A DNA stretch of 64,000 nt, from NCBI GenBank assembly GCA_016203135.1, contig JACQNI010000078.1, positions 1,157 to 65,156 on the forward strand, given 5' to 3'. The stretch's first letter is position 1, and each line of letters starts with the position of its first letter. This stretch comes from Candidatus Woesearchaeota archaeon. Lineage in GTDB: Archaea > Nanobdellota > Nanobdellia > SCGC-AAA011-G17 > JACPNG01. The notes beneath the pieces were generated by a model, which saw nothing but the letters and a program-made list of their open reading frames with translations, ran no database searches and was not told the origin of the DNA. This document shows positions 1,491-56,438 of this stretch, piece after piece. The translations under genes and the position numbers were made by a program.

Positions 1491-3203
1491 ATGATTAGAC
1501 AGCCAATAGTTGTACTGGTAGGCCATGTAGACCATGGCAAGTCAAGTATTTTAGAGAAATTAAAAGATATATCTATATTAAAATACGAGCCTGGAGCAAT
1601 AACCCAGAAGATTTCTTCAGTCAACATACCATTTGAAGACATAAGAAGAATCTCAGGAAGCCTATTAGATCAATTAAAAATAAAATTGACAATTCCTGGT
1701 TTATTGCTCATAGACACCCCAGGACATGCAAGCTTCACAAATTTAAGAAAACGAGGAGGCAGTATTGCAGACATAGCAATTCTTGTTGTGGATATTAACG
1801 AGCTAGTAAAACCGCAGACAGAAGAGGCAATAGAAATTTTAAAAGCATACAAAACACCATTCATAGTTGCACTAAACAAAATAGATTCTATATATGGCTG
1901 GAAAACAACCAAAGACCAATTAATAAAAAGCATTTCAACCCAAAGTGAAAATGTAAGAAAAAAACTTGATGATCAGCTTTATACCCTAGTCGGAAAACTA
2001 CATGGTTTTAACATAACATCTGAAAGATTCGATAAGATAGACAATTTTACAAAGCAGGTTGCAATAGTTCCTTGCAGTGCTAAGACCGGTCAAGGTATTC
2101 CAGAAATAGTAATGGTAATAGCTGGACTAGCCCAGAAATATCTTGAAGATAAATTAAAAATCCATGAAAAAGAAGAGACAAAAGGGACTATTTTAGAAGT
2201 AAGGGAAGAAAAGGGCTTAGGAATAATCATAGAGGTAATAATATATAGCGGATCATTAAAAGTAAACGATCAGCTTGTAATAGGCAACATAGACAAGCCA
2301 ATTATAACAAGAGTAAGATCATTATTTGTAAAAGACAATAAATCATTAAAGAATTCCAATCAAGTAAATGCAGCATCCAGCGTAATTATATTCGCGCCAG
2401 ATATAAAAGAAGCAATTGCAGGCATGCCCTTGATTGTAGCAAATAAAAATACAGAAGAAGCAGAAAAAAAGGTTCAAAAAGAAGTCCAGGAAATAGTTAT
2501 AGAAAGGGATCAAGAAGGAATAATCATAAAGGCAGATTCTCTCGGTAGTTTAGAAGCCTTAATTTCTTTGTTAAAAGAAAAAAACATTCAGATAAAAAGG
2601 GCAACAATAGGAAACATAACAAAAAAAGACATAACAGAAGCCCTTGCATCAAAAGATCCATTAAACAAAGCAATCCTTGCCTTTAATGTAAAAAGCGAAG
2701 ACAGCTCAGTAAAAATAATTTCAAGCGATATAATATACAAGATAATTGAAGATTTTGAAAAATGGAGGGAAGATTCTAGTAAAAACATAGTAAAAACAGA
2801 GTTAGGAGAATTAACCCCTTTATGCAAGATCGAATTGATGGAAGGTTATGTATTCAGGCAAAGCAACCCAGCTGTTATCGGCGTTGATATAATTTCAGGC
2901 AATTTAAAAACAAATATCACTTTATTAAATCTTGAAGGCAAAGAAATAACTCGAGTAAAAAGCATTCAGCATGAAAAGAAGAATATAAATGAAATAGCTT
3001 CAGGAAATCAGGTAGCCCTAGCTTTATCAGGAGTGACCATAGGCAGACAAATAAAAGAAAAAGATATACTCTATTCAGACCTGACAGAAGAAGAATTCAA
3101 GAAATACAAGAAATTAAAAAGATTTTTAAATCCTAGTGAAATCAAAATACTAAAAGAAATAGCAGAAATCAAAAGAAAGGATAACCCATCTTGGGGAATG
3201 TAA
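1491..3203 (+). CDS. infB: translation initiation factor aIF5B / IF-2 (GTPase)
   Basis: GTPase motifs GHVDHGKSS (G1), DTPGH (G3), NKID (G4). Domain order and length typical of archaeal aIF5B. No intein. Confidence 0.9.
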   Translation: MIRQPIVVLVGHVDHGKSSILEKLKDISILKYEPGAITQKISSVNIPFEDIRRISGSLLDQLKIKLTIPGLLLIDTPGHASFTNLRKRGGSIADIAILVVDINELVKPQTEEAIEILKAYKTPFIVALNKIDSIYGWKTTKDQLIKSISTQSENVRKKLDDQLYTLVGKLHGFNITSERFDKIDNFTKQVAIVPCSAKTGQGIPEIVMVIAGLAQKYLEDKLKIHEKEETKGTILEVREEKGLGIIIEVIIYSGSLKVNDQLVIGNIDKPIITRVRSLFVKDNKSLKNSNQVNAASSVIIFAPDIKEAIAGMPLIVANKNTEEAEKKVQKEVQEIVIERDQEGIIIKADSLGSLEALISLLKEKNIQIKRATIGNITKKDITEALASKDPLNKAILAFNVKSEDSSVKIISSDIIYKIIEDFEKWREDSSKNIVKTELGELTPLCKIELMEGYVFRQSNPAVIGVDIISGNLKTNITLLNLEGKEITRVKSIQHEKKNINEIASGNQVALALSGVTIGRQIKEKDILYSDLTEEEFKKYKKLKRFLNPSEIKILKEIAEIKRKDNPSWGM

Positions 3204-3205
3204 AT

Positions 3206-3601
3206 ATGCCAGAATTTATTTTAACAATAAGCAAGGATAAGAAAAGTTACAAGAAAGCAATAGATACAGATTTATTCAAAGGTAAAAAAATAGGAGACCT
3301 AGTTCCAGGAAATTCCCTTGGTTTAGAAGGTTATGAATTAAAGATTACTGGAGGCTCAGATACCTCAGGATTTCCGATGAGGCCAGACTTAAAAATAGTC
3401 GGCAGAAGAAAAATATTGATAGTAAAAGGAATTGGCTTAAGAAAAAATAGAAAGGGTATAAAAAGAAGAAAAACAGTAGTAGGCAATCAGATAAGTTTAA
3501 ACACAAAGCAGATCAATCTTATGGTTACAAAAGAAGGTTCTAAAAGCATAGACGAAGTTTTTGGTGTAAAACAAGAGGAGAAAAATGAACTACAAAGTTA
3601 A
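3206..3601 (+). CDS. rps6e: 30S ribosomal protein S6e
   Basis: MPEFILTISKDKK...GKKIGDLVPG..LGLEGYELKITGGSDTSGFPMRPDL matches the S6e signature. Start moved to the ATG at 3206, just after the infB stop. Confidence 0.9.
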   Translation: MPEFILTISKDKKSYKKAIDTDLFKGKKIGDLVPGNSLGLEGYELKITGGSDTSGFPMRPDLKIVGRRKILIVKGIGLRKNRKGIKRRKTVVGNQISLNTKQINLMVTKEGSKSIDEVFGVKQEEKNELQS

Positions 3602-3878
3602 AAGCATTATCATAGGAAGGAAAAAAAATGAAAGTAAGTCTTTACAAGGAAGGCCTTGCTTTATCTCAATGTTTGACATAAACGATCCCCATATAAAAAA
3701 CATTTCCCCAAAAAAAATATTAGATTTCAAGTCAATTAAAAAAATAATCCTGAAGGGTTTTGAAGTAAACTACCTTCTTGAAGGGAATGATATATTGGTA
3801 AATAATTTGTCTTCTTTAGTCATCCAGGAAAACCAGAAAAATGGGTATTTAGTGCTTTCAGGAAAACAAGATTTATAA
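3585..3878 (+). CDS. hypothetical protein (97 aa)
   Basis: ORF between rps6e and aIF2-gamma. No recognisable motif. Confidence 0.3.
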   Translation: MNYKVKSIIIGRKKNESKSLQGRPCFISMFDINDPHIKNISPKKILDFKSIKKIILKGFEVNYLLEGNDILVNNLSSLVIQENQKNGYLVLSGKQDL

Positions 3879-4011
3879 ATATTCATTCTTAAAAATATTA
3901 ACTTCAGCCAAAACAAGATTAAGAGAAATAAAGTTTATAAAGAAAACAATTTATCCTTTTTTAACTCACAATGACAAAATCAATAAATTCGATCAATTGG
4001 AGGCAAATGAC

Positions 4012-5289
4012 TTGAATAAAAAAACCGTAGAAGGGTTGCAACCCACAATTAACATTGGTCTCGTTGGACATTAAATAATTAAGGTTATTTAAACCAAAGA
4101 CGTAGACAATGGTAAGACCACCCTGCTTCAAAGAATTAGTGGAATATGGACAGACACCCATTCTGAGGAAATAAAACGAGGAATAACAATAAGATTAGGA
4201 TATGCAAACACAGCCTTCTATAAATGCAGCAAGTGCAAAGATCTAGATATATATAAAACCAAAGACATATGTGATATTCATAAGACAAAATGTGAAGTCA
4301 TAAAAAAAGTTAGTTTTGTTGATGCCCCTGGACATGAAACATTGATGGCAACTATGCTTTCTGGTGCAGCAATAATGGATGCAGCATTGCTGCTTATAGC
4401 TGCAAATGAGCCATGTCCACAACCACAAACAAAAGAGCATCTTATGGCCCTAGAAATTATCGGAATAAAAGATATTATCATAGTTCAAAACAAAATAGAT
4501 CTAGTTTCAGAAGAACAGGCTAAGGAAAACTATAACCAAATTAAGAATTTTGTAAAGGGAACAATAGCAGAGCAAGCACCAATAATACCAATATCAGCCC
4601 AGCATAATACAAACATAGATTATTTAATAAAAACAATAGTTGAAAATTTCAAGATTCCAAAAAGAGATCCAAAAAAACCACCAATAATGTTGATAGCAAG
4701 AAGCTTTGACATTAACAAGCCAGGAACAGAAATCAAAGACTTGGTGGGAGGAGCTTTAGGAGGATCTTTAAAGCAGGGGATTCTTAAGCAGGGCGATGAA
4801 ATAGAAATAGTTCCTGGTTTAAGGAAAGAAAAAGACAACAAAATAATATATCAGTCAATAAAAACAGAGATAGTAAGGATAATGACAGGAAAAGAAGAGA
4901 TTGACCAAGCATCTCCAGGGGGATCCATTGGCATTTCTACCAAACTTGATCCAAGCATTGTAAAAGCAGATTCATTGATAGGCAATATAATAGGCCATCC
5001 AGGAAAACTGCCAAAAGTCTGGGATTCTTTTAAGTTAAAGCAGCATCTTCTTGAAAAAGTAGTCGGCCTAAAAGACGAACTAGCTGTTGAACCCATAAAA
5101 AAAGGGGAAACTTTGATGTTGAACGTAAATTCAGCAACAACAGTAGCAACAGTAACAGATCTTAGTAAAGATAAGATAAATCTAAAATTAAAGCTTCCTG
5201 TTGCTGCTGATTTAACAGATAGAATAACTATTTCTAGATTAATTGGATCAAGATTTAGATTGATTGGCTGGGGCCAGATTGAGAATTAA
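4012..5289 (+). CDS. eif2g: translation initiation factor aIF2 gamma subunit, reading frame interrupted by a 30-nt in-frame insert carrying two TAA stops
   Basis: Upstream frame translates to ...VEGLQPTINIGLVGH, then insert TAAATAATTAAGGTTATTTAAACCAAAGAC. Frame then resumes as VDNGKTTLLQRISGIWTDTHSEEIKRGITIRLGYA..CSKC..CDIHKTKC..VSFVDAPGHE and continues into the 315-aa ORF 4342..5289. Collinear with archaeal aIF2-gamma, including the zinc ribbon. Probable TTG start at 4012; 3997 or 4036 are alternatives. No in-frame ATG upstream. Confidence 0.85.
4072..4101 (+). other. 30-nt in-frame intervening sequence inside the aIF2-gamma P-loop (GHVD^NGKT); perfect 8-bp hairpin 4071-4078/4085-4092, two TAA codons
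   Basis: Removing exactly 30 nt (three equivalent placements, 4070-4099 to 4072-4101) restores a canonical G1 motif GHVDNGKT. Stem TTAAATAA / TTATTTAA with loop TTAAGG. Confidence 0.6.
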
Positions 5290-5950
5290 TATCTTTCCTA
5301 ACTCTAAACCTAATATATCTTTCTATACTTGGAAAATCAGTTCCGTTGGATAAAACTTCCTCTTCATAATTTACAATTAAATTTTTTTTGCCCCTAGCTA
5401 AATTGGCTCTTAGAGTATTAGGATTCATTTTCCTAGATCTAGAAATCTCTGCTATACTTAAGTTATTTATGATTCTGTCTATCAATATAGGTCTATAATT
5501 TCTATGTACCCTATTTAAAGAACGATTCAACAATTTAGAATATTCATCAATTCTTATTTTATCTCCAGGGATAGCCCTAGTATCACGAAGATATAAACTA
5601 TCCTTACCTAAGTCATCTAAATTTAATTCTTGATTTATTTTTCTTTCTCTTCTCATAAGTTGATATGCTTCATTTCTAGCTATTCTATAAACCCAATTTA
5701 TAAATTTACTTTCATCCTTTAAATCAGAAATTTTTTGATATGCTAAAATAAAAGTTTTTTGTGTTAAGTCTTCTGCATGATCTCTTGGATTATTAAGACG
5801 AAATTTAAAAAGTAAAGTTTGAAGATATCCAAATACTTGTGGTGAATATTCTTTATATAATGATGAAAAGGCAGCTTGATCCCCTTGCTTTGCTTTAATC
5901 ACTATTTCTTCTAAATCACTTTGTGCTTCCATTTTTAACAGTCCTTGCAA
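5255..5950 (-). CDS. ECF-type sigma-70 family protein (bacterial-type sigma factor homolog); likely start at Met7 (5932)
   Basis: Region 2 DLTQKTFILAYQKISDLKDESKFINWVYRIARNEAYQLMRRERK matches the ECF pattern DLxQETF...F.(N/T)WLYRIARN...RR.R. Region 4 LSIAEISRSRKMNPNTLRANLARGKKNL matches the HTH of ECF sigma. Directly downstream of gyrA, same strand. Confidence 0.7.
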   Translation of the reverse strand: MQGLLKMEAQSDLEEIVIKAKQGDQAAFSSLYKEYSPQVFGYLQTLLFKFRLNNPRDHAEDLTQKTFILAYQKISDLKDESKFINWVYRIARNEAYQLMRRERKINQELNLDDLGKDSLYLRDTRAIPGDKIRIDEYSKLLNRSLNRVHRNYRPILIDRIINNLSIAEISRSRKMNPNTLRANLARGKKNLIVNYEEEVLSNGTDFPSIERYIRFRVRKDINSQSGPSQSI

Positions 5951-19704: not shown

Positions 19705-19817
19705 TGCTCCGGCCGAGATTCGAACTCGGGTCTCCGCCTTTCTTTGTTTTTGATTAAACCTTTCTAAAAAGTTTACTCGAAAGGGCAGAATCCTTGGCCG
19801 GACTAGACTACCGGAGC
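19705..19817 (-). tRNA. tRNA-Glu (anticodon UUC) with 38-nt intron at the canonical 37/38 position
   Basis: Sense sequence GCTCCGG..TAGTCCGGCCAAGGAT.CTGCC-CTTTCG-[38 nt]-A-GGCGG-AGAC-CCGAG-TTCGAAT-CTCGG-CCGGAGC-A. 7-bp acceptor, T-loop TTCGAAT, anticodon stem CUGCC/GGCGG. No encoded CCA. Confidence 0.75.
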
Positions 19818-24045: not shown

Positions 24046-24894
24046 TTAAAGGGATTGTCGGCTAGCTTGGTTTAGGCTTCGAGGTTTGGGACCTTGCGAC
24101 CCAGGTTCAAATCCTGGCAGTCCCATTATCTTCAATAGACCCTCTTCCTTTCTTTTATTGCTAAAACCAATATTCTTATAGTATATTTCCAAATATTTTC
24201 TTGGAATTCTAAGCAGATACAGGTCTTTTCGATTATCTCTTTTTCTTACTGTTATTCTAGGAACAATCTTCAAAATTAAAAGTATCTTTCTAAGGTCTTC
24301 TATTAGCTCCTTGGAAACAACCCCACAAGAGATATTTATGTTTTCAACAAACCCATCTGTATCCATTAAACCTCTAGCAAAACCAAATAAGAATGATTTA
24401 TTATGAGATTCTATCTCTTTGGCAAGACGTATTGAGTATACTTTTCTGTTTTCCCAATGCAAATAATCTTTAATAAAATTTGATAGATTTATTGAACTTA
24501 TTCTTATTTCAAATGAACTAGGATTTCCTTTATAATTTTTAACATACACTTTTGGATTGAGCCCCATTTTCTTGAAAAGAGAAACTAAATAATTCTTATA
24601 TTCTTTATCATCTTTATAAGAAAGGAAATACCTTGTATAGTATTTACTACTCCTACCATTCTTATCATGGTAATATGAACCATCCCCCGCAAACGAACCT
24701 ATAATTTCCCCTTTTATGAAGTCTGGAAATAGTAGATTAATTTGTTTTACTCTTTTTACTTTTTTATTTACATTTAGATTATACTGGATAGTACTAAGAG
24801 TAATATTTGTTTTCTTTTGTATCTTTCTTAAACTTAATCCATTTTTAGAAAGATTTTTTATTAATCTTATCTGAATTTTTGATAATCTCTTCAT
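24046..24894 (-). CDS. LAGLIDADG homing endonuclease (double-motif, with N-terminal HTH)
   Basis: Motifs IIGSFAGDGSYY and FLFGFARGLMDTDGFV. N-terminal HTH LSLRKIQKKTNITLSTIQ. Last 27 codons are antisense to tRNA-Pro. Confidence 0.8.
   Translation of the reverse strand: MKRLSKIQIRLIKNLSKNGLSLRKIQKKTNITLSTIQYNLNVNKKVKRVKQINLLFPDFIKGEIIGSFAGDGSYYHDKNGRSSKYYTRYFLSYKDDKEYKNYLVSLFKKMGLNPKVYVKNYKGNPSSFEIRISSINLSNFIKDYLHWENRKVYSIRLAKEIESHNKSFLFGFARGLMDTDGFVENINISCGVVSKELIEDLRKILLILKIVPRITVRKRDNRKDLYLLRIPRKYLEIYYKNIGFSNKRKEEGLLKIMGLPGFEPGSQGPKPRSLNQASRQSL
24051..24125 (+). tRNA. tRNA-Pro (anticodon UGG)
   Basis: GGGATTG acceptor pairs with CAGTCCC. Anticodon arm CGAGG-TTTGGGA-CCTTG. T-arm CCAGG-TTCAAAT-CCTGG. 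Discriminator A. 75 nt, no intron. Confidence 0.75.
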
Positions 24895-36157: not shown

Positions 36158-37198
36158 TTAAGATAATGTGGTTGTTTTAATGTAGTCTATTAGTTTTTTC
36201 CCTCTATTATATAATTCAGTATAAGTAATAATTTCTACATTGCTCAGATGGCTTGAGAAGATTCTTCTGTCTTGAATTTTATCTGTTTTTTGTTTACCTA
36301 TAACAATAAGAGATTTTGGTTTAAAGATATTTTTAATATTTTTAGTATCACATATGTGTAGATAAGTAAAAACTTGACCGATTGCTTCTGAAAACTTTTG
36401 ATTTGGTTTGCTTCTTTTTTCAGTTCTTCGGTCAAATAGATTCTCATTTGGGCCTTTTAACTCTACTAAATCATAAAAGTTATCATATCTTTGTAACATT
36501 ATATCAAATTGATAATCTTTTTTGCCAGGTGGGAACCAAACTTTATGCTCAATTCCAATATATTCTAAACCAAAAATCCAAAAGATATCTTTATTAGCAA
36601 TAAAATAATTGTGAACATCGGTCTCTGTTGATTTAGAACTATCGATAAGAGTCTTGAATTTTTTAAGCTTATTCTCGTAGTCTTTGACATTAGACTTCAT
36701 TATGTTAAATCGTCTTTTGAAAATATTTAACTGGACAATATTTGATGATTCTAGGTCTTTAATTTTTTTGAATTTTGCATTGAGCTCACTAATCTCATCT
36801 TTTTTCCTTAAAAAGTTTTTATATTTTTCTTTTGGAAGAACAACAAAATTTGGGTTGCTAAGCCCATCTCCAATAATTGCGTTTACTATTTCAGAAGTGA
36901 GGGACCATTCTTCCATTGATCTTATATTGTAACTTCTAAAAATTCTCCAGTATTTAATTTTCTTATTTTTCTTATCATTAATTGCTCTCCATTTTGTTAC
37001 TCTAATAACTCTTTTATCTGTCAATTTGCCAGAAGTTCTATCTCTTTCGTAGCATTCATCTACACTATAAAGCCAGACACTATTACTTGATAAAAGAACT
37101 GGATATCTGTTAATTAATTCATAGAACTCACTTTCAATAAATGTCCTCTCATTGCAAGTTAAAATTTTATCCATAACATTCTGGATGGGGTGTAGCAT
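36158..37198 (-). CDS. Shedu-like (DUF4263) PD-(D/E)xK nuclease, candidate defence gene
   Basis: C-terminal YQFDIMLQRYDNFYDLVELKGPNENLF...KFSEAIGQVFTYLH...PKSLIVIGK matches the DUF4263 pattern (D..D..ELK / ..A.sQ...Y / iIVIGr). Variable N-terminal domain. Confidence 0.5.
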   Translation of the reverse strand: MLHPIQNVMDKILTCNERTFIESEFYELINRYPVLLSSNSVWLYSVDECYERDRTSGKLTDKRVIRVTKWRAINDKKNKKIKYWRIFRSYNIRSMEEWSLTSEIVNAIIGDGLSNPNFVVLPKEKYKNFLRKKDEISELNAKFKKIKDLESSNIVQLNIFKRRFNIMKSNVKDYENKLKKFKTLIDSSKSTETDVHNYFIANKDIFWIFGLEYIGIEHKVWFPPGKKDYQFDIMLQRYDNFYDLVELKGPNENLFDRRTEKRSKPNQKFSEAIGQVFTYLHICDTKNIKNIFKPKSLIVIGKQKTDKIQDRRIFSSHLSNVEIITYTELYNRGKKLIDYIKTTTLS

Positions 37199-38198: not shown

Positions 38199-41100
38199 TT
38201 ATTCTTTTTTTTTAAATAATCTTTTAATTCTAAACCTTAATTTTCTTACTATTCTTGTGCGAGTTAAAAATGTTAGTGTCAAAATTAACACAACCCAAGA
38301 GATTATAGTAGACCATACCCCATTATTTCCAGAAAGAACACCTATTGCAGCCCCAGTTGGAGGTCCTGGATTAGTAAAGAATGCTTTAATTCCATTCCAT
38401 ACTTTAGCAAAGAATCCTTGGGTAGTTTGTTCTTGAGCTTCTAAAACTGGTTCTTCTTTAGGTTCTTCTTGTAATGTTTCAGGAACCGCTTCTTGTGGTT
38501 CTTCTCCATCAGGTATAGGAAAATCAAATGTTGGAGTTGGTTGAGGTGTAGGCGTTACACTTCTAGAGCTACTACTTCCCCCACCACCGCCTCCCCCTCC
38601 TCCCCCAGAAGATCCGCCTGGAGATCCAGTATCTACTCCAGTACTACAACTTTGGGATTCTTGGGGTTTATTATTTGTAGTTCCACATAAATTAGAGTCA
38701 GTACAGGTTCTAGTTTGGGTTCCACTAGTACAAGAGCTCCATTCAGAACATGTCCATGACTCATCGCAAGATTCTTGTTCTTTAATTCCTGAATGTTTTA
38801 AACCGCTTATTTTATACGAGTTATTTACAATCTCACAACTGTAAGTAAAGTTTGAACCTGGGCATAAAACTAATAATTCATCTTCTTTAATACAAGAATT
38901 ACTAATCTCTGTTAGATTAGTAATTTCTTGATCTTTAAGGCATAGTTTACTTGTATTTGATATAATGTCTACGTATACCGTCTTATTACTTCCATTCAGA
39001 TCTAAACCACGAATAAGAAGAGAACCAAAACTACTGTTATTTTCTTGTTTTTTAATAGTTAAATTCTTTATGTTGATTGTAATATTTGGTAATTCTATTC
39101 TTGTTTTATTATTTTCTTTTAAAATTAATTTATCCTTTATTTTTCCTAGATTTATATTATCTAAATTATTTTTAATTTCAGTTATATTTCCAATAAAGCC
39201 ATCATTATCAAAATCACAGGAATAAGTGTTGTTTTGAGGTCTACCTAATAAATCTGAATTCAAACCAGTCTTATTATAACAAGAATTATTGTCAATGAAA
39301 TAATTTTTAAATATTTCATCTTTTTGACATGGTGTAAATGATTCTATCCATTTTGGAGTGCAAAAATCGCATATTAAAGGTTCAAATTCAGAAAAATTTC
39401 CTAGATATAAGTCAGATTCTAAACCAGTTTTATTATAACAACTAAAGGTATCATTGACTAAATTACATGATTGTGTATCATTTGCTGAACATTTATTATA
39501 CCCCCCACAAGTAAAATTCGGTTTACAAAAATCACATTTCCCAATGATGTTCAATGGTTTGTTTTTATTATCATTACAACTATTAATATCAAAATAATTT
39601 TTAAATTGTTGATCATTAGAACTACATTCTGACCAGGTGTTATTTAAGACCCAATTTGGAGTGCATAAATTAATTTCATAAAGACTAGTTTCTGCGGCTT
39701 TTATTTCTACTTTTCTGTTAGTGTCTTGACCATTTACAAATAACGAATAATTTCCTTCTGGAATAGTTAAGCCATAATCTTCCTTATTATCATCATAATT
39801 AAAGTGATAAAATATTTTTGATGTTGGGTTTTGTGTAAATTGATACTCTATTGAACTATTAACAATTTTGACTTGACCATTAAAGGTTTCATTTACTTTA
39901 ATCAAAGCAGTCCCTTCTCCAAAAGGATTATTCGCATTATTTGAATTAATATATACTTCATCATGGTTAAGATAACTACCAAAATTATTTTGATTAGTCA
40001 TAAATTGGTCTATCAAACCAATCACGTTATCTAAGTTAGTTGTTGTGTTTAGATAATCTTCAATTAGAGGTCTTAGAACTGAAGACCAAGCCTGTCCCGT
40101 ATAATGGTCTAAAATCATATCCCAAAAACCATGTTCCCATAATTCTATTTGTGTATATATTGTTTTGTGATTTCTATTTATAACTATTAATGGAAGATTG
40201 TTATTTATCCTTGATGCACTAGAGACTGAAACTAAATCATCTGAGTCATCAGCTTCAAAAGGTAAACATGGGATATCTTGATTTTTACCAGCAATAATCA
40301 AAGTATCAACATTTGATGTGGTGTTTTTTATATTCAACTTCCAAATAAAATCACTACCTATCGCAAGGTCTGTATATGCTGGCGCATCTTGATTCCAACT
40401 AATAAAAGGTTTTCCAAACAATAACCATCCGCCGACCTCATTTATTACTTGACACGCTAAATTCATGCCTTCATCATATATTATTCTATTTGCTAAATAT
40501 GAACCATAATTCGGTGGGGCAAGCATTAGCAACTTACTCACATCATCATGATAAGATATGTTTTTACCGTTTGGGTCGGTAGCAATTCCTTCGATGTAAG
40601 ACCTTGTTACTAATCCCCCCATACTATGAGATACAATTTTAACTTTTGAAGAAGTGTAAAAAGAATTAACATAAGAAATTCCATCAGACAACAAAGTACC
40701 AGAATAATCTATCTTTTGGTCATTTGGATAATAAAATTTCCAAACATCATAACCTTTTGCGATTAATTTATCTTCAAAGTGTCCATCAAAATATCCACTT
40801 TCTCCATTTAATCCATGAACTAAAATTAATGGTTCATTATTAACATTCAAATTCTTTCTTGGTGCTTCTAAGAATGAAACCTGATAAAAACTAGAACTTA
40901 TGCTTGCAACAGAAAAAGCGTTGGTATTGATAGAATTTGTAGTTTCTAACAATTCATTAAGTTCTTTTTCTTCTTTAAACTTTTCAAATGGTTTTATCTC
41001 TAGTGAAGAGTTTATTTTATAATATTGGTAATTGAAAGATTCTTTTATGAGGTTTGAACTTGGAACTAAATAAAAACTTTCTTCACTACCTCTTTTCCAC

Positions 41101-42482
41101 ATTAGATTGGGAGATTCTCTCTCAATTAAGTGAACATATTCAATAGTGATATTATGTTCTCCTTCTGTTAAATGACTAGGAAAAGAAACAACTTCATCTG
41201 AATAAAGAGAGTCTATAACCATTTCTTCATCTAATATTATCTTATACCCTCCCAAAATTGTAGCGTTAAAGTAATATGAATTTTCATTCCCAATCATCAA
41301 TATACCCTTCCAGGAGTTATACAATATTTCCTCTTCTTTTTCTACGTCTTGTTCTTCAGGGTCTGTGCTACTAGCCGAGAAAGTTTTGGTTAAGTCGTCA
41401 GTTTCTGATTCTGTTAACAATGGTACTATTTTATTTTTAATTAAATTAAGTTGCGAGTTTTGTTCTTCTGTTAAGTGAATTTCTTCATCATCTTTTATAT
41501 TCTCATTTTGAATATTTTCAGAAGATGTTAAATTGTTTATTTCAAAACTATCAGAGGTTTGTTTCCAATAAGGTTTATCTGTATGAATTCTAACTCTTTG
41601 GTCTATATAGTCTAACCCTTTCTTGTATTTATCATTGTCATTTGTGTAACTATTTGTCCAACTAGCAATAGGGTTATTGTTGTTGTCTAATGCAAAAACT
41701 TTAATGTTCCAATCAAATAAAATATTTGAGTTCCATTCTGTTTGCCTATTAAATTCAGGGTTGTATTTGAAATTACCATTAGAGTCAGATTGAACATAAT
41801 CAGCAAAAACTGGATTTGTAATTCTTCCCAATAATGAAGAGTCATCATAAACAACAAAAAATAAACTTATGTTTGAGTAAGGTTGTGAACTGAAAGTATT
41901 TTGTTGATTTGTAACAACATTAAAGACTTGTCCCTTTATTGCATAATTACAAAAGTTTTGATTAACATTCCAGTTTTCATAATCAAAACAACAACCATCC
42001 CCTAAAGAACCTCCTCCGCCCGCAGAAAAAATAGGAATACCTTCACAATATAATTTATTTTGGCATGAGGAATCTAAGTTACAATCACCTTCATTATGTT
42101 CTAAATTACCACTAGCTTTAAAATCCATATTCCAAGAATTTCTTTGTACATTTCCAATCTTTACTTTTGCATAATATTCTGCGTTGTTAAATCCATCTTC
42201 TCCATTAGCACCACCCCATTTTGCGATTATACGGTTATTCTTCACTCCACCAGAAAAATTAGCGATAAAATCATCATCAAGAAAGTCGTCTTCCCATATC
42301 TCAATTATAACAGAAGTTCCGTCAGAATAACCAGAAGTCTTAGCTAAAACATATCTTTCTTCAAAAGATTTTGTTAAATATTTATCCCAATCAACGCTGT
42401 CAATAGTAGCCGCATTAACAAAACTACTAAGTGAAATTAATAGGATAAAAGTAATCAAGTAACTTTTATAAACCATACCCAA
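38199..42482 (-). CDS. giant secreted / surface-anchored protein (1427 aa) with alpha/beta-hydrolase (lipase-like) domain, Cys-rich modules, poly-Gly/Ser linker and C-terminal TM anchor
   Basis: Signal peptide. LILVHGLNGESGYF and VSHSMGGLVTRSY (lipase GxSxG with upstream HG). GSSGGGGGGGGGGSSSSRSVTPTPQPTP linker. C-terminal hydrophobic helix followed by a KR-rich tail. Confidence 0.7.
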   Translation of the reverse strand: MGMVYKSYLITFILLISLSSFVNAATIDSVDWDKYLTKSFEERYVLAKTSGYSDGTSVIIEIWEDDFLDDDFIANFSGGVKNNRIIAKWGGANGEDGFNNAEYYAKVKIGNVQRNSWNMDFKASGNLEHNEGDCNLDSSCQNKLYCEGIPIFSAGGGGSLGDGCCFDYENWNVNQNFCNYAIKGQVFNVVTNQQNTFSSQPYSNISLFFVVYDDSSLLGRITNPVFADYVQSDSNGNFKYNPEFNRQTEWNSNILFDWNIKVFALDNNNNPIASWTNSYTNDNDKYKKGLDYIDQRVRIHTDKPYWKQTSDSFEINNLTSSENIQNENIKDDEEIHLTEEQNSQLNLIKNKIVPLLTESETDDLTKTFSASSTDPEEQDVEKEEEILYNSWKGILMIGNENSYYFNATILGGYKIILDEEMVIDSLYSDEVVSFPSHLTEGEHNITIEYVHLIERESPNLMWKRGSEESFYLVPSSNLIKESFNYQYYKINSSLEIKPFEKFKEEKELNELLETTNSINTNAFSVASISSSFYQVSFLEAPRKNLNVNNEPLILVHGLNGESGYFDGHFEDKLIAKGYDVWKFYYPNDQKIDYSGTLLSDGISYVNSFYTSSKVKIVSHSMGGLVTRSYIEGIATDPNGKNISYHDDVSKLLMLAPPNYGSYLANRIIYDEGMNLACQVINEVGGWLLFGKPFISWNQDAPAYTDLAIGSDFIWKLNIKNTTSNVDTLIIAGKNQDIPCLPFEADDSDDLVSVSSASRINNNLPLIVINRNHKTIYTQIELWEHGFWDMILDHYTGQAWSSVLRPLIEDYLNTTTNLDNVIGLIDQFMTNQNNFGSYLNHDEVYINSNNANNPFGEGTALIKVNETFNGQVKIVNSSIEYQFTQNPTSKIFYHFNYDDNKEDYGLTIPEGNYSLFVNGQDTNRKVEIKAAETSLYEINLCTPNWVLNNTWSECSSNDQQFKNYFDINSCNDNKNKPLNIIGKCDFCKPNFTCGGYNKCSANDTQSCNLVNDTFSCYNKTGLESDLYLGNFSEFEPLICDFCTPKWIESFTPCQKDEIFKNYFIDNNSCYNKTGLNSDLLGRPQNNTYSCDFDNDGFIGNITEIKNNLDNINLGKIKDKLILKENNKTRIELPNITINIKNLTIKKQENNSSFGSLLIRGLDLNGSNKTVYVDIISNTSKLCLKDQEITNLTEISNSCIKEDELLVLCPGSNFTYSCEIVNNSYKISGLKHSGIKEQESCDESWTCSEWSSCTSGTQTRTCTDSNLCGTTNNKPQESQSCSTGVDTGSPGGSSGGGGGGGGGGSSSSRSVTPTPQPTPTFDFPIPDGEEPQEAVPETLQEEPKEEPVLEAQEQTTQGFFAKVWNGIKAFFTNPGPPTGAAIGVLSGNNGVWSTIISWVVLILTLTFLTRTRIVRKLRFRIKRLFKKKE

Positions 42483-43236: not shown

Positions 43237-44151
43237 ATGAAGGGATGGGTAGACTTGCTAAAAAGCCTAAAATGGTATGAAAAGTTAGTTTATTTTCTTG
43301 GTTTATTATTGGTTATCTTATTAACTCAATATTTCATAAGTGGTTATATACATTCAAGTGTTAACTATGAAGATTTTGATATTAGTGCTACTTGGGAAAA
43401 CAAAATTGATGATACCTTTTATTTTGATTATAGTGAGGGAGTATTTCATTCTTGGTTTGAATTAAAAGTTACTTCTCTTAGAGATGATTTATACTACAGG
43501 GTTTATGATAAATCTATAAATATTGAGCTAACAGAGTATGGTGGTGTCAGAAATTTAGCTAGACTTAATCAGGGTGCTGTTTATGTTGATATTTTTAATG
43601 CTGATGCTAAATTAAAAACAATTGACCAATTAAAAGAAATTGAAGTCTGTGTTTCGTCTAAACAAGATTTTACAAAAAGTACAGAAGGAATAGTATGTAA
43701 ATCTACTTTCTTACAACCAAGAAATATAAATATTGAAGTAAATTCAGATCCATTAACCTTTATTAGCTCTAAATCCTCTTTTGAACAACAATATAAGTGG
43801 CTAACTGTTAAAAATATAGGAGATACAACAATAAATGTTTGTGTGTTCCTTCCATCATATGCATCATATGCTAATGAAAAATTAGATTACCCAAGATATA
43901 AACCACAATACGGAACTCGGTGGGGATTTGGACCTGAAGGAGAAGGAACTCAAAATTGTGAAATATTGGAACCAAGTGAGAGCTCTAAGTACGAAGTAGC
44001 TGTTTTTGTAGGAAATGTGGGTGAGTTTGATACACCATTAGGCACACATACATCTCAAGGAATTGTGGGTGCTGTATTTGGTGAATATCTTGGGTTAGGT
44101 TATGCACATTATAAAAAGTCGTTTACTTTAGAAACAACTGTTATTCAATAA
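43237..44151 (+). CDS. membrane-anchored hypothetical protein (304 aa)
   Basis: N-terminal TM helix, rest beta-rich. Confidence 0.4.
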   Translation: MKGWVDLLKSLKWYEKLVYFLGLLLVILLTQYFISGYIHSSVNYEDFDISATWENKIDDTFYFDYSEGVFHSWFELKVTSLRDDLYYRVYDKSINIELTEYGGVRNLARLNQGAVYVDIFNADAKLKTIDQLKEIEVCVSSKQDFTKSTEGIVCKSTFLQPRNINIEVNSDPLTFISSKSSFEQQYKWLTVKNIGDTTINVCVFLPSYASYANEKLDYPRYKPQYGTRWGFGPEGEGTQNCEILEPSESSKYEVAVFVGNVGEFDTPLGTHTSQGIVGAVFGEYLGLGYAHYKKSFTLETTVIQ

Positions 44152-44210
44152 AAAAATTCATTGTAATTAATAAATTCAAAAATAAAATCTTTCCTCTTTT
44201 TAACAATATA

Positions 44211-44576
44211 TTAATTTGTGATTCTGGGAATGGACATTGTTCTTTTGAACCTCTTTAATTTATCATAATCAATTTCTTCTGCTTTATTTACTTGAAATAC
44301 CTCGGCTTCAGGATATCGCTTCTTAAATTCTGTTAAATCAGACCTATTAGACTCTTGTTGAGGTTTTGAGGAGCCACATTCACATTCCACTGCTATTGGT
44401 TTAAGGTAAGGCCTATCTTTATGTGGAAATCCTACAGTATCAATAAAATGTACATTTCCTTCTCTAAAAATTGGGAATTCCTTAAAACATTGGTGCGTTG
44501 ATTTCAATCTATTATGAACGCCTTGCACGCATTTTTTATGCTCTTTTTGTTGCCCCATTTTCACTAATCCATTCAT
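44211..44576 (-). CDS. hypothetical protein (121 aa)
   Basis: ORF only. Confidence 0.3.
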   Translation of the reverse strand: MNGLVKMGQQKEHKKCVQGVHNRLKSTHQCFKEFPIFREGNVHFIDTVGFPHKDRPYLKPIAVECECGSSKPQQESNRSDLTEFKKRYPEAEVFQVNKAEEIDYDKLKRFKRTMSIPRITN

Positions 44577-44799
44577 TTAAATTGTTAAATTCTTTAAAAC
44601 ATGGTGATTTCTTATTTTTGTCTTTTTTATGAATTACGTAGTAACACTTCTCCTTTTGTGCACCATCTTCAAAACGTAGACGTTCGAGAATTATCCATTT
44701 CTTATCTTTTATTGTGTTAATTTTTCCTTTTCTATTTTTAGTTAAATAATAAGATATTAAAACTACTGTCAAAGATAATATAGCTAAAATAAAATACAT
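44536..44799 (-). CDS. hypothetical membrane protein (87 aa)
   Basis: N-terminal TM helix. Confidence 0.3.
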   Translation of the reverse strand: MYFILAILSLTVVLISYYLTKNRKGKINTIKDKKWIILERLRFEDGAQKEKCYYVIHKKDKNKKSPCFKEFNNLNEWISENGATKRA

Positions 44800-44800
44800 A

Positions 44801-45208
44801 TTACGCCTCTCCTAGGTATCTGTCTGTATTAATTATTTCCCTCTTTACTTCAACAATTTTATCCATATACTTAGGTTTACTGGACTTAATAAGTGGACCT
44901 TCTTCACTATTAAACCCATACCATAGATTATAATATTTTTTAGCTCCTTCAGAAAATTTATAATAGTAAACCCCTTTTTTATACCTTCGAGTAAACCATC
45001 CTTGTCTATACATGCGCCAGAGTTTTAAGCGTGTTGCATTACCACTTATAATGTTATTAAATAATTCGCAAAGATTATTGGAAGTAAACTCACTATTCAA
45101 ATCATAATTTCTCCTAATGAACTGAAGGAATTCTGGAGTCCACTTTATTACTGCCTTGATTGTTAATCCAGAATATCTATCTGTATAATGCTTTATTGCA
45201 TAATCCAT
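44801..45208 (-). CDS. hypothetical protein (135 aa)
   Basis: ORF only. Confidence 0.3.
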   Translation of the reverse strand: MDYAIKHYTDRYSGLTIKAVIKWTPEFLQFIRRNYDLNSEFTSNNLCELFNNIISGNATRLKLWRMYRQGWFTRRYKKGVYYYKFSEGAKKYYNLWYGFNSEEGPLIKSSKPKYMDKIVEVKREIINTDRYLGEA

Positions 45209-45232
45209 TTTATTTAAATAAATAATAATGGA

Positions 45233-46057
45233 TTATAAATTGCGCCTATTTATTTTGGAAACATCAAGCTTTTTTAAGATTTCTTGTAGAAGTTTAGAAT
45301 TCATTGATTGATATTTAAGTATCAGTTCTTCATTATGTTTATGTTTGATCGTTTCATCGTATAATTCCAGGAATCTATCTTCATTTATTAACATATTGAA
45401 GATAGCTTCTAATTTGATCGGGAGCTTTAGTTTATGCTCGGATCTTAGTGACTTAGCTGATTTATTGTGATAGAGTTTAAACTGTTCTGATAGTGAATCT
45501 ATGCTTATACTATTTAAGCCGTCTAATTTAATACCTTCCATATCATTATTAATTTCTATGCTAGTTAAATAAACCCTAGAGGGTACTGGTTCTTCATTGC
45601 AAAAATTATGAATCAATTCACAAAATAGTAAATAGCAGGTATAAATCGAAGTTATATTCAAAGGATATTGTGTAGAAACCCTTAAACTGGCTTTTTTACT
45701 AGTACTACCAATTTCAAATTTTAGGTTAAGTAATGAATTTCCCAAATTTTTTGTTATTCTTTGACCGTTATATTTTGGTAATTTATAAGAAAGGATTGCA
45801 TTGTGAAAATTCCATTTAAAAATAGCACCATGCCTATCATTATCAACTAAGACATAAAGTCCAGCGTACCCCTTATGTTTTACTCCATCCATATCAGGAA
45901 GCATTGACTTTATTGTATTATGGTTGATCCCAGTATAATAACTTATGGCTTTGGGGGTGAGCCCTTCGGGATGATTTTTAAGGGCTTGCATAATTTTATT
46001 AATTTTTTCTTGTTTATTCCTGTTGTTAGTTGTAACTTTGGGTTGCTTATGACTCAT
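45233..46057 (-). CDS. hypothetical protein with N-terminal HTH-like region (274 aa)
   Basis: GLTPKAISYYTGINHNTIKSML HTH-like. Confidence 0.35.
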   Translation of the reverse strand: MSHKQPKVTTNNRNKQEKINKIMQALKNHPEGLTPKAISYYTGINHNTIKSMLPDMDGVKHKGYAGLYVLVDNDRHGAIFKWNFHNAILSYKLPKYNGQRITKNLGNSLLNLKFEIGSTSKKASLRVSTQYPLNITSIYTCYLLFCELIHNFCNEEPVPSRVYLTSIEINNDMEGIKLDGLNSISIDSLSEQFKLYHNKSAKSLRSEHKLKLPIKLEAIFNMLINEDRFLELYDETIKHKHNEELILKYQSMNSKLLQEILKKLDVSKINRRNL

Positions 46058-46385
46058 TTTTAATCCGATAATTTATCTTTATTCCATGCCCATAATGGAT
46101 ATTTATAAAACCTAAATCCTTTAAAAAGAGCAAAACATCCCACACTTGCTTTTTTTGTATTGAAAAAGAGGACGCAAGCTTTGAAATTGCATCAGGAAAG
46201 CTTATTATCCCAGCTTTTGAGGTTTTACATTCTGCTAATCTTTCCAAACATATTAAGTATAGGCCTTTTCTTGGCATTCTTAATCTTAGGAGATAATTAG
46301 GATGAACATTTGCTAAATCCTGTTTTTCAATTTTAGATTTATTTTTAATATTATTAATTTTTTCGATCCATAATTGGTTTGTCAT
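46047..46385 (-). CDS. hypothetical protein (112 aa)
   Basis: ORF only. Confidence 0.3.
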   Translation of the reverse strand: MTNQLWIEKINNIKNKSKIEKQDLANVHPNYLLRLRMPRKGLYLICLERLAECKTSKAGIISFPDAISKLASSFSIQKKQVWDVLLFLKDLGFINIHYGHGIKINYRIKNES

Positions 46386-46444
46386 TTAAATGACAAACCT
46401 TATATACTTATATAGCCTTTTTATTAAAAAAACGATAAGTCGAT

Positions 46445-47293
46445 ATGATGAAAGAATCTATTAAAATAAAAAGAGATAGAAAATTAAATAGGTTTGTTAT
46501 AAAATCCCTAATTAAAAGACCTTTGTCAGCTGATCAGATTCTTGATAAAATTAAACTATCTAAAAAGTTTAAAATTAACACCCTACCTGGATTAGAAAAA
46601 TATCATTTAGCATATCTAGAAAAGAAAAATGTTATACTTAGATTAGATAGAAAAGCTAAAAATTTTATAAATAATTTATCTGTTGAAGACTTTATGGAAA
46701 AAACTTGGTTTAGGTGGGAGAGAAGTATTAAGAAAAATAAATGGGGAAGTAAAAGTAATAATCCTTATCATTCATATTATTTTGCTACTCCTATAACAGC
46801 TAAATGGACAAATATTTTTAATAAAATTATTAGAGAGAGAATTTTAGTTAAACTCAGCGAATTTATTACTGATAGGGATGAGATTGAGTTATGTTTGAAT
46901 GAAATTATTAATACTATGAAAAAAATTGAAACCCTTTCTAGGAAAAAAATAAAAATTTATAAAAGATTACAACAAGAAACCGATGATTTTTTAGGAGTCA
47001 AGGGAATTAATTATTTAGAAAGCAAAATTAAAAAAATCAAAAAATTTCAAAAAAAAGACGGTATGTTTTTACCTTTTGGATTTGCTGATTATATATTATC
47101 TGATTTTGATAGTTTTATGAGACCTATGGATGATATTAAATTTGTTCTCTTTAGCAGACTACTTAATAAATTAGGTACCCTTCACTATTTATTAAATCAA
47201 AGAATTAAAATAATAAGTATTTTAGATTATGAATTTAAAAAAGAAAATTTTGTTGAACCCAATGAATATCTTAAGAATTTAACTTCTTCTTAA
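46445..47293 (+). CDS. hypothetical protein (282 aa)
   Basis: ORF only. Confidence 0.35.
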   Translation: MMKESIKIKRDRKLNRFVIKSLIKRPLSADQILDKIKLSKKFKINTLPGLEKYHLAYLEKKNVILRLDRKAKNFINNLSVEDFMEKTWFRWERSIKKNKWGSKSNNPYHSYYFATPITAKWTNIFNKIIRERILVKLSEFITDRDEIELCLNEIINTMKKIETLSRKKIKIYKRLQQETDDFLGVKGINYLESKIKKIKKFQKKDGMFLPFGFADYILSDFDSFMRPMDDIKFVLFSRLLNKLGTLHYLLNQRIKIISILDYEFKKENFVEPNEYLKNLTSS

Positions 47294-48518: not shown

Positions 48519-48614
48519 CGCCGAGGCAGGGATTTGAACCCTGATATCCTTGCGGAAACCGGTTTTCGAGATTCGCCTTTTATCCAGCGCACTACCGGAT
48601 TATGCGACCTCGGC
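48519..48614 (-). tRNA. tRNA-Ser (probable anticodon CGA), long variable arm, 12-nt intron at non-canonical position 30/31
   Basis: Sense sequence GCCGAGG-TC-GCAT..GTGC-G-CTGG[ATAAAAGGCGAA]T-CTCGAAA-ACCGG-TTTCCGCAAGGATAT-CAGGG-TTCAAAT-CCCTG-CCTCGGC-G. Collinear with the intron-less tRNA-Ser(GCU) at 51888..51971 apart from the 12-nt insert. Confidence 0.65.
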
Positions 48615-53137: not shown

Positions 53138-54145
53138 ATGATACACATTGATGGTAAAGAAGCTGGGGGACAGATTTTAAGATCTGCATTGTCTTTATCC
53201 GCAATAACTAAGGAACCATTTGAAATAGTAAATATAAGGGCTTCTAGAAATGAAGGGGGGTTAAAGCAGCAGCATCTAGAAGGTGTTAAGGCAATGGCTA
53301 GTATCTGCAATGCTGATGTAAAAGATGCTTTTATTGGATCTAAGGAATTAAGTTTTTATCCAAGAGATATTTTGGGAGGTAATTATAAAATAGACATAGG
53401 AACAGCTGGATCTATCACTTTGGTTTTACAAACTTTAATACCTGCTTTATTGTTTGCAGATAAAAAAACCTATTTGGAAATAAAAGGCGGGACAGATGTA
53501 AAATGGAGCCCAAGTTTTGACTACTATTATAATGTTCCAATGAGATATCTTGAGATGTTTAATGTAGATTTAAACCTAGAGTTAATAAAACGTGGTTTTT
53601 ATCCTAAAGGAAATGGTATTGTTAAACTAGAGATAAATCCATGCAGGAAATTAAGGGTTTTAAATCTAGTAGAAAGGGGAGATTTTGAAAGGATAGACCT
53701 TTTTAATTATGCAACTAGTGACTTGAAAAAGGCTGATGTTATAGAAAGACAAAGAAAAGGATTTGAGGATGAAATGAAAATGAAAGAAACATATCATATG
53801 AATGGATATGTTGATGCATTATCTACTGGAACTGTAATGCATGCACATGCTCATTATGAAAAGTGTATACTTGGTGTTGATATTTTAGGGGATAAAGGAA
53901 AAAAAGCTGAAGATGTAGGAGAGGAATTAGCTAAAAAATTAAAATTTGAAATCAATAGCAAGGCAACTGTTGATCAATATATGGCTGATCAAATATTAAT
54001 CTTTATGGCTTTAGCTAAAGAAGGGAGTTTTATTACTTCTAAGATAACTGATCATGTCTTGAACAATATAAAAGTCATAGAGAAATTTTTAGATGTGAAA
54101 TTTAAGATCAGCGATTGTTCTGTTAGTTGTTATGGAAAAAATTAG
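53138..54145 (+). CDS. rtcA: RNA 3'-terminal phosphate cyclase
   Basis: IDGKEAGGQILRSALSLSAITKEPFEIVNIRASR..GGLKQQHLEGV, the RtcA signature. Confidence 0.85.
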   Translation: MIHIDGKEAGGQILRSALSLSAITKEPFEIVNIRASRNEGGLKQQHLEGVKAMASICNADVKDAFIGSKELSFYPRDILGGNYKIDIGTAGSITLVLQTLIPALLFADKKTYLEIKGGTDVKWSPSFDYYYNVPMRYLEMFNVDLNLELIKRGFYPKGNGIVKLEINPCRKLRVLNLVERGDFERIDLFNYATSDLKKADVIERQRKGFEDEMKMKETYHMNGYVDALSTGTVMHAHAHYEKCILGVDILGDKGKKAEDVGEELAKKLKFEINSKATVDQYMADQILIFMALAKEGSFITSKITDHVLNNIKVIEKFLDVKFKISDCSVSCYGKN

Positions 54146-55820: not shown

Positions 55821-56438
55821 ATGGAATTAAACAAAGACTTTGCAGAATTAATTGGAATTTTACTCGGAGATGGTTCTATAAATATATACCCTTCAAATAA
55901 ATATTCTACATATTATCGTGTTAAGGTTAGTTTTAATTCTAATGAAGAGGCTTATGTTGGTTATGTTAGTGATCTTATGTTCAAAACATTAAATGAAAAA
56001 CCAAAAAGATATGATAGAAAAAACGAAGATACTTCTGAATTATTAATCTTTAAAAAAAGTGTAGCAAATAAACTCTTATCTATTGGTTTAAAGAAATCTC
56101 CAAAATGGAATAGAGCAGTAATCCCAGAAAAATTTATGAAAAAAAGATTAGGCAAATATGTTTTGAGGGGTTATTTTGATACTGATGGTAGTGTGGTTTT
56201 GGCAAATAATAATGGAACTTTATATCCTCGCTTAGAAATGAAAATATGTCCTTCTCCAATGCAATCTCAGATATTAAAATTATTAAATGAATACAATTTA
56301 AACTATAATTATTATAATATTGGTAAAGGTAAAATTCGTATTCAGATGAATGGGAAAAAAGCATTAAAAATATGGACTTCAAAAATAGGTTTCAGTAATT
56401 CAAAGCATATTGAAAAGGCTTCTTATTTTCTGAATTAA
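55821..56438 (+). CDS. LAGLIDADG homing endonuclease (double-motif)
   Basis: LIGILLGDGSI and LRGYFDTDGSV motifs. 205 aa. 72 nt downstream of the initiator tRNA. Confidence 0.8.
   Translation: MELNKDFAELIGILLGDGSINIYPSNKYSTYYRVKVSFNSNEEAYVGYVSDLMFKTLNEKPKRYDRKNEDTSELLIFKKSVANKLLSIGLKKSPKWNRAVIPEKFMKKRLGKYVLRGYFDTDGSVVLANNNGTLYPRLEMKICPSPMQSQILKLLNEYNLNYNYYNIGKGKIRIQMNGKKALKIWTSKIGFSNSKHIEKASYFLN

Follow-up and report, generated by a model that had tools for sequence, protein, structure and literature searches.

Archaeal introns of the bulge-helix-bulge (BHB) type are defined by a substrate of the splicing endonuclease, a 4-bp helix with a 3-nt bulge on either side (PMC7714728, PMC5829648), in which cleavage falls between bulge nucleotides 2 and 3 (PMC2738675). 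According to the papers covered, the only BHB intron in a coding region is that of cbf5 in Crenarchaeota, to which one case in a 5′ untranslated region (5′-UTR), HVO_1309, can be added (PMC2738675, PMC7714728, PMC12397907). The stretch considered here, called the window throughout, comprises 64,000 nucleotides of a Candidatus Woesearchaeota archaeon (contig JACQNI010000078.1, positions 1,157 to 65,156) and carries a gene for aIF2-gamma that is interrupted by 30 nt within its P-loop motif. Judged from sequence comparison, window positions 4070-4099 are very probably an archaeal BHB intron in the aIF2-gamma coding sequence, removed from the mRNA.

The cbf5 pre-mRNA intron is likewise a short BHB-type intron within a gene that encodes a protein, with a cut predicted between the second and third bulge nucleotides and a patchy record of gain and loss across its lineage (Watanabe 2002; Yokobori 2009, PMC2738675). 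Its host, however, is cbf5 in Desulfurococcales and Sulfolobales rather than aIF2-gamma in DPANN/Woesearchaeota. Its motifs are mostly relaxed and tied to a heteromeric EndA, whereas most aIF2-gamma alleles have the canonical hBHBh′ form, in which an outer helix h and an inner helix h′ enclose the BHB. To our knowledge, no homing-endonuclease gene has been reported beside the cbf5 intron. The HVO_1309 intron of Haloferax volcanii is also an mRNA substrate of the archaeal splicing endonuclease, but it sits in an untranslated leader and interrupts no reading frame (PMC7714728).

The BHB introns of archaeal rRNA genes, such as that of the Desulfurococcus mobilis 23S rRNA with its enzyme I-DmoI, share with the aIF2-gamma system BHB splicing, a two-motif LAGLIDADG enzyme of the I-DmoI fold and insertion in a highly conserved functional site. 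The aIF2-gamma system differs in that the open reading frame (ORF) lies outside the intron, upstream of exon 1, and often continues in frame through exon 1 to a stop codon in the intron; in addition, the intron is only 27-32 nt long and its host is an mRNA, not an rRNA. Collaborative homing in phages (2009, as described in PMC6083498) also features a free-standing endonuclease gene next to a gene with an ORF-less intron. In that model, the intron splits the target of the enzyme and the enzyme mobilises both (PMC6083498). There, the intron is a self-splicing group I intron in a phage, whereas here it would be a protein-spliced BHB intron on an archaeal chromosome, with a presumed target and presumed immunity. 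Inteins in the P-loops of translational GTPases are selfish insertions in the same motif, and one relative discussed below (L046/L050) carries both kinds of element, but inteins are encoded in frame and removed at the protein level.

The literature covered, which left out most subscription papers, yielded no account of an intron in aIF2-gamma or of an endonuclease gene lying outside a BHB intron. The mechanism is of a known kind; what is new is its host gene, lineage and architecture. The aIF2-gamma gene would be the second coding-gene host of a BHB intron; it encodes an essential translation factor, belongs to another superphylum (DPANN) and has a fully canonical BHB.

The interrupted aIF2-gamma gene

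In the window, aIF2-gamma occupies 4012-5289 on the forward strand and is collinear with its homologs apart from 30 nt bearing two in-frame TAA codons (4072-4074 and 4090-4092). Read in one frame from the TTG at 4012, it gives LNKKTVEGLQPTINIGLVGH*IIKVI*TKDVDNGKTT... and is thereafter open up to the TAA at 5287-5289. When the 30 nt are taken out, the 415-aa product is a full-length aIF2-gamma equivalog match, scoring 632 bits against NCBIfam equivalog NF003077 (cut-off 315) and 622 bits against TIGR03680 (cut-off 514.5). The gene is divided as follows.

3999..4003 (+): Shine-Dalgarno-like GGAGG, 8 nt before the TTG start, read from the sequence
4012..4069 (+): aIF2-gamma exon 1, from the TTG start to the C of the P-loop His codon; encodes MNKKTVEGLQPTINIGLVG plus that C
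4070..4099 (+): putative BHB mini-intron of 30 nt (AUUAAAUAAUUAAGGUUAUUUAAACCAAAG), with predicted cuts C4069/A4070 and G4099/A4100
4100..5289 (+): aIF2-gamma exon 2 by translation, from the AC of the His codon through VDNGKTT... to the TAA stop

The insert 30-mer has a single occurrence within the window. The Asn of VDNGKT is a lineage feature, shared with P0001, the intact relative that is closest. In GenBank the gene is recorded as a 388-aa protein (MBI4157019.1) that begins at CTG 4123 and lacks the P-loop; in exact protein look-ups the TTG-start ORF found no match and the ATG-start version did. Truncation of this kind by gene callers can distort marker-gene completeness estimates and phylogenies of these genomes.

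The insert is a recurrent feature of related genes. Several of the best 120 protein hits are N-terminally truncated, and the contigs of three of them (L040, L041 and L042) are interrupted at the identical nucleotide, by 30, 27 and 31 nt, respectively; all three also keep the layout of GGAGG, spacer and start codon. Their common architecture runs from ...GGTCTNGTTGGAC through a variable hairpin and CCAAAG to ACGTAGAC..., and the exon-1 end GGUCUCGUUGGAC is common to all intron-bearing alleles. A metagenome scan with that DNA pattern returned 17 loci, every one in an aIF2-gamma gene, and the 17 distinct alleles known at that point had lengths of 27, 29, 30, 31 and 32 nt. Most of these lengths are not multiples of three, and the in-frame 30 nt of the window are therefore a coincidence. 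Two alleles (L068 and L070) were added through the endonuclease protein rather than through DNA, giving a total of at least 19 distinct alleles on Woesearchaeota-type metagenome contigs. Among intronless genes, 35 relatives all have GH[V/I]D.GK[T/S] uninterrupted, and a scan of GTDB representative genomes gave 38 relatives, none with the insert, which were used as intronless controls.

The relatives also locate the junction. The codon that follows GGA is CAT in the window, CAA in L040 and CTT in L042, and the sole junction that makes sense in all alleles is GGAC/...AAAG/AC, which yields GGA-CAC-GTA and thus G-H-V of the universal G-H-V-D. In-silico splicing at this point gives ORFs of 404-431 aa in every locus that is long enough, while unspliced ORFs end within a few codons. 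Because the CAA and CUU alleles leave no decoding path through the insert to His, the join must be made at the RNA level. The initial annotation had placed the insert in frame at 4072-4101. Its frame stands, but its boundaries are ambiguous by 2 nt in the window sequence, and the relatives together with the RNA structure give 4070-4099, with the His codon split as C/AC. These limits are fixed since the alleles differ both in their first intron bases (CAA in L040, CUU in L042) and in length (27-32 nt).

The insert is present in the DNA. One Logan assembly, that of SRR12113383, matches the window at 100% identity across 4.4 kb, insert included, and the separately assembled SRR12113430, SRR12113384, SRR12113431 and SRR12113420 agree at the site, again with 100% identity. 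L045, a related strain from a different aquifer, carries this insert with a single substitution in the loop. An artefact of assembly or amplification, one of the options raised by the initial annotation, could draw on the complementarity between the insert and the upstream exon, which chimeric reads can show. It is excluded because five independent assemblies carry the insert, as do other samples, sites and projects, and its probability is negligible.

Bulge-helix-bulge structure and constraint

Together with its flanks, the insert can be folded into the following elements.

4058..4063 (+): outer helix h, exon-1 strand GUCUCG, pairing with 4101-4107
4064..4067 (+): central helix H, 5′ strand UUGG, in exon 1, pairing with 4094-4097; invariant in all alleles
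4068..4070 (+): 5′ bulge ACA, predicted cut after C
4071..4092 (+): inner helix h′ and loop, UUAAAUAAU / UAAG / GUUAUUUAA, from the fold; A4093 is an extra unpaired base
4094..4097 (+): central helix H, 3′ strand CCAA, in the intron
4098..4100 (+): 3′ bulge AGA, predicted cut after G, on the strand opposite the 5′ bulge
4101..4107 (+): outer helix h, exon-2 strand CG[U]AGAC, with one bulged U

A 4-bp helix with two opposed 3-nt bulges is present, as are the outer and inner helices that make up the BHB motif. The two TAA codons, the perfect 8-bp stem, the ACA bulge and the UUGG/CCAA helix are all as the initial annotation had described them, and the BHB that it proposed to look for by folding the region with its flanks was found. 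It had called the helix-bulge-helix shape partial, however, and the motif is complete once exon 2 is included (4058-4063 with 4101-4107). What had escaped it was the part of the structure that lies in exon 2, the exact placement of the boundaries 2 nt leftward and an endonuclease remnant upstream. The perfect stem (4071-4078 with 4085-4092) reaches 9 bp when U4079-G4084 is counted (4071-79 with 4084-92). Cuts placed by the cleavage rule, C4069/A4070 and G4099/A4100, produce in silico the same junction that the reading frame independently demands. RNAfold recovers the BHB or a near register, and in each of the 17 alleles the canonical BHB comes to within 0.8-3.5 kcal/mol of the minimum free energy (MFE).

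In the proposed route, exon 1 of the pre-mRNA (GUCUCG-UUGG) would pair with the 3′ end of the intron (CCAA) and with exon 2 (CG-U-AGAC), so presenting the ACA and AGA bulges either side of a 4-bp helix closed by the 9-bp intron hairpin. The tRNA-splicing endonuclease would cut after the second nucleotide of each bulge, and an RtcB-type ligase would join ...GGAC to ACGUAGAC..., a join that would create the His codon CAC and an intact P-loop GHVDNGKT. Unspliced RNA would give a 20-residue peptide only. Cleavage, ligation, the enzymes responsible and any homing activity are what we infer from the sequences. A substrate as small as this (27-32 nt of intron and ~20 nt of exon) would suit studies of splicing-endonuclease specificity.

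The weight of the evidence is comparative. When the alleles were aligned with a covariance model, seven of the eight modelled pairs of the inner helix changed on both sides across alleles. The covariation score was 0.240, against 0.098 in shuffles; none of 500 shuffles reached 0.240, and slid controls scored lower. In the outer helix, the pair beside the 3′ bulge is changed in L070 from G:C to A:U in a compensatory manner, which turns the exon-1 Val codon GTT into Ile ATT and the exon-2 His codon CAC into CAT. Six alleles were retrieved without the DNA pattern, four through the aIF2-gamma protein (the window, L040, L041 and L042) and two through the endonuclease protein (L068 and L070). All six keep GGTCTN[G/A]TTGGAC and A[C/T]GTAGA[C/T], so that their flanks are frozen at synonymous sites, while synonymous positions of the same codons vary freely in the 35 intronless genes. 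On this sequence comparison, the exon parts of the structure are under constraint at the RNA level.

The organism must splice BHB introns, since the window has intron-containing tRNA genes. Four tRNA genes are detected by Rfam, two of which are missed by ARAGORN owing to insertions in the anticodon arm. The two intron-bearing genes and a gene related to RNA ligation are listed here.

19705..19817 (-): tRNA-Glu(UUC), an Rfam tRNA hit with a canonical 38-nt BHB intron at 37/38
48519..48614 (-): second intron-bearing tRNA gene, with ~23 extra nt in the anticodon arm (38 nt against 15 model positions, Rfam)
53138..54145 (+): RtcA, RNA 3′-terminal phosphate cyclase (Pfam RTC, 272 bits)

In tRNA-Glu, 41 nt replace 3 in the anticodon loop, with the parse CUGCC-CUUU-CG/...AAAG-AA/A-GGCGG. 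RtcA belongs to the RtcB-type pathway of RNA repair and ligation.

Several observations weigh against a BHB intron in aIF2-gamma. Thirteen of the alleles came from a DNA pattern that fixes the flanks, and their flank conservation is by construction. The MFE structure often lies 3 nt out of this register at the 3′ bulge, so that U4064 pairs with A4100 and not with A4097, and the window sequence, taken by itself, has a folding energy that is not significant (z = -1.4). In the CUU-Leu alleles the outer helix is weakened beside the 3′ bulge. Neither EndA nor RtcB is among the ~57 window ORFs scanned with Pfam and NCBIfam, a scan that covers only this part of the genome, and a second intact aIF2-gamma copy may lie elsewhere in the genome, outside this one window. 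Exact look-ups of ten predicted spliced proteins in the protein collection, which could reveal cDNA-derived assemblies, returned none. Lastly, in L067 (1772-1850) the interruption lies 8 nt further downstream, as GHVD/31 nt/HGKT, beside the same endonuclease family. The frame of L067 fits only a relaxed motif, in which a 3-bp central helix plus a G-A apposition is combined with a canonical 5′ bulge and with a 3′ site that lies in a larger loop, and this locus may represent a second insertion site.

A pseudogene would account for two in-frame stops in an essential motif: a recent hairpin insertion would have killed the gene, with aIF2-gamma supplied by another copy or by a host. DPANN archaea are host-dependent and have reduced genomes, and the genome beyond the window is unseen. 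Against this, at least 19 diverged alleles are interrupted at the same site with ORFs otherwise intact over ~400 codons, the ribosome-binding site and start are intact and conserved, and the covariation shows that the insert itself is under selection. Over the last 314 codons, the ratio of nonsynonymous to synonymous polymorphism (pN/pS) between the window and L062, an intronless strain 94% identical to it, is 0.10, and every complete allele has an intact ORF. By these sequence measures the aIF2-gamma gene is alive and under selection, in keeping with the initial annotation, which had offered the pseudogene as an option while describing the rest of the gene as intact and constrained. Loss of the gene is accordingly given only a slight chance. 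Removal at the RNA level by some other nuclease and ligase, or by a self-cleaving activity, is about equally improbable. It would fit the failure to find the splicing enzymes among the scanned window ORFs, but the motif agrees in every sequence-level respect with an EndA substrate and the canonical rule predicts the correct frame. An RNA of 27-32 nt is, moreover, too small for known ribozyme introns, and Rfam has no family match to the insert region; nothing observed requires such a mechanism.

Programmed translational bypassing, as in T4 gene 60 or the mitochondrial byp elements, would have the ribosome take off at GGA or CAU and land 30 nt downstream. A stop directly after the interrupted codon, a hairpin starting at the take-off site and a short gap are what such a model would use. 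No landing codon matches GGA or CAU, however, and landing on GAC would give GDVD. The variation of the codon after GGA among CAU, CAA and CUU leaves no decoding to His, which only RNA joining as C/AC provides. What is conserved, moreover, is precisely the set of parts that make up a BHB (the 4-bp helix, the two 3-nt bulges and the exon-exon helix), none of them required for bypassing. The initial annotation had already judged a ribosomal hop unlikely; bypassing is in our estimate highly improbable, a shade more so than a dead gene. Two other candidates were rejected outright. Stop-codon reassignment is excluded by the other genes, and aIF2-gamma itself, which end in TAA and are intact, and expression as two polypeptides by the lack of an in-frame start between 4093 and 4342. 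A mini-intron comparable to that of crenarchaeal cbf5, which the initial annotation had listed first among its possibilities, is the explanation supported by the same-site inserts of 27-32 nt in relatives, by the canonical BHB and by predicted cuts that restore both the frame and the invariant His.

Upstream endonuclease genes and a possible homing route

Upstream of exon 1, L043 and L044 have a frame that is open for about 420 codons. Full-length endonuclease ORFs stand directly upstream of exon 1 in these two loci and in L048, L057, L067, L068 and L070. The window retains only the end of such a gene.

3871..4008 (+): 46-codon C-terminal remnant of an I-DmoI-like LAGLIDADG ORF, in the aIF2-gamma frame, found by tblastn

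The remnant is 65% identical to residues 396-440 of the family member P0131 over 46 aa (E = 6e-11) and 49% identical to the L043 ORF. The endonuclease family counts 33 proteins among 5.8 billion. Seventeen of them close with the exon-1 peptide of aIF2-gamma (...QPE.NIGLVG[H/Q]), to which 0-13 residues and a stop are added; in these, the ORF continues through exon 1 and ends within the intron. An AlphaFold2 model of the endonuclease is confident save for the exon-1-derived tail, with a predicted local distance difference test (pLDDT) of 88 and a predicted template modelling score (pTM) of 0.84. Its best Foldseek match in the PDB is I-DmoI (E = 2e-6), with a template modelling (TM) score of 0.6-0.65 normalised to the target. 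Two acidic residues, D189 and E302, are invariant, one in each LAGLIDADG motif. Pfam LAGLIDADG_3 matches 14 of 30 members, and a PDB sequence search with the endonuclease profile gave no hits. On the strength of the model, the upstream ORF is predicted to have the fold and the catalytic residues of a homing endonuclease.

For the association with the intron, alleles that had come through the endonuclease were left out of the count. Of the others, 8 of 18 intron alleles have the gene or a remnant of it beside them, against none of 36 intronless loci (Fisher p = 4e-5, with lineages that are not independent). Conversely, all three family members whose contigs were fetched adjoin an interrupted aIF2-gamma gene.

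The distribution of the introns themselves is patchy. In a neighbour-joining tree of 157 aIF2-gamma sequences, the genes with an intron lie dispersed among intronless genes of the Woesearchaeota type. The window falls into a group with L040, which has the intron, and with P0001 and L060, which do not, and L048 is nested among the intronless P0048, P0102 and P0112. Since the introns share a recognisable consensus, A[A/T]TAG..AAG-loop-CTT..CTA.A-CCAAAG, the pattern argues for common descent with repeated loss, for lateral transfer, or for both. Between the window and the intronless L062, identity is ~94% upstream of 3890 and downstream of ~4155, and ~65% over roughly 3891-4155. This divergent tract, known from one strain pair only, takes in the remnant, exon 1 and the intron, and extends 55 nt into exon 2. 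As a separate observation, a one-base deletion in a C run of L062 (GATGCC-CTGG, ~430-470) splits its aIF2-gamma gene call, and is probably an assembly error rather than biology.

The window intron is probably, though with less certainty than its identity as an intron, the surviving half of a decayed mobile unit of which the endonuclease gene was the other half. We further propose, tentatively and with slightly less than even confidence, that aIF2-gamma genes of DPANN archaea are invaded through collaborative homing by a two-part selfish element, made up of the mini-intron and the upstream endonuclease. The endonuclease would cut the conserved P-loop-coding DNA of intronless alleles, and the cut allele would receive a copy of the endonuclease gene as well as of the intron during repair. 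The BHB intron would split the recognition site and so render its carrier immune. The endonuclease gene could then decay, as in the window, and the intron would be left stranded, since only a precise deletion removes it. If this model is correct, a protein-spliced intron would for the first time be seen to take part in collaborative homing, and BHB introns would have a route into protein-coding genes. The tight link to an endonuclease gene provides a testable model for how protein-spliced introns reach coding genes and persist there.

The displaced interruption of L067 and an intein of L046 in the same motif suggest that this short stretch of P-loop DNA is a contested homing target. In L046 (4776-4841 and downstream), and also in L050, the BHB intron is followed 17 nt on by a 557-aa intein inserted after GHVDHGK (C...HN/T). 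The L046 intein contains a LAGLIDADG domain and matches Pfam Intein_splicing with 76 bits. One P-loop thus holds two kinds of intervening element. Another intein is found in L041, where the gyrase A gene beside aIF2-gamma (3147-4951, -) has a precomputed Pfam Intein_splicing hit within DNA_topoisoIV.

Other features of the window

The neighbours of aIF2-gamma in the window are aIF5B, S6e and gyrase, and the nearest relatives are metagenome-assembled genomes of Woesearchaeota/Nanoarchaeia. Between S6e and aIF2-gamma lies a 97-aa ORF (3585-3878, +) without a family match, whose position is kept in L060, L063 and L066. The 3′ end of aIF2-gamma is overlapped by a gene for a bacterial-type extracytoplasmic function (ECF) sigma-70 factor (5255-5950, -) on a contig that is otherwise archaeal. 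This gene matches the NCBIfam sigma-70-ECF and SigW-like models, and its position is kept in L040 and L063-L065.

A generic BHB scan of the whole window gave 1116 hits, compared with about 1100 in shuffled sequence. With a broken-ORF filter, this weak scan brought out only the aIF2-gamma intron and no further mRNA introns in the window.

Two more LAGLIDADG ORFs occur in the window, at 24046-24894 (-) with Pfam LAGLIDADG_3 and at 55821-56438 (+) with Pfam LAGLIDADG_2, in positions unrelated to aIF2-gamma. The former overlaps a tRNA-Pro gene (24051-24125) on the opposite strand. The second intron-bearing tRNA gene is adjoined, as at an integration site, by a tyrosine-recombinase gene of the phage integrase family (47271-48488, -), upstream of which runs a series of ORFs without a family match (43237-47293). 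An ORF at 36158-37198 (-) carries the C-terminal nuclease domain of Shedu SduA (Pfam SduA_C, 59 bits) and is a candidate anti-virus defence gene; it neighbours a 1427-aa ORF (38199-42482) having a lipase-like domain.

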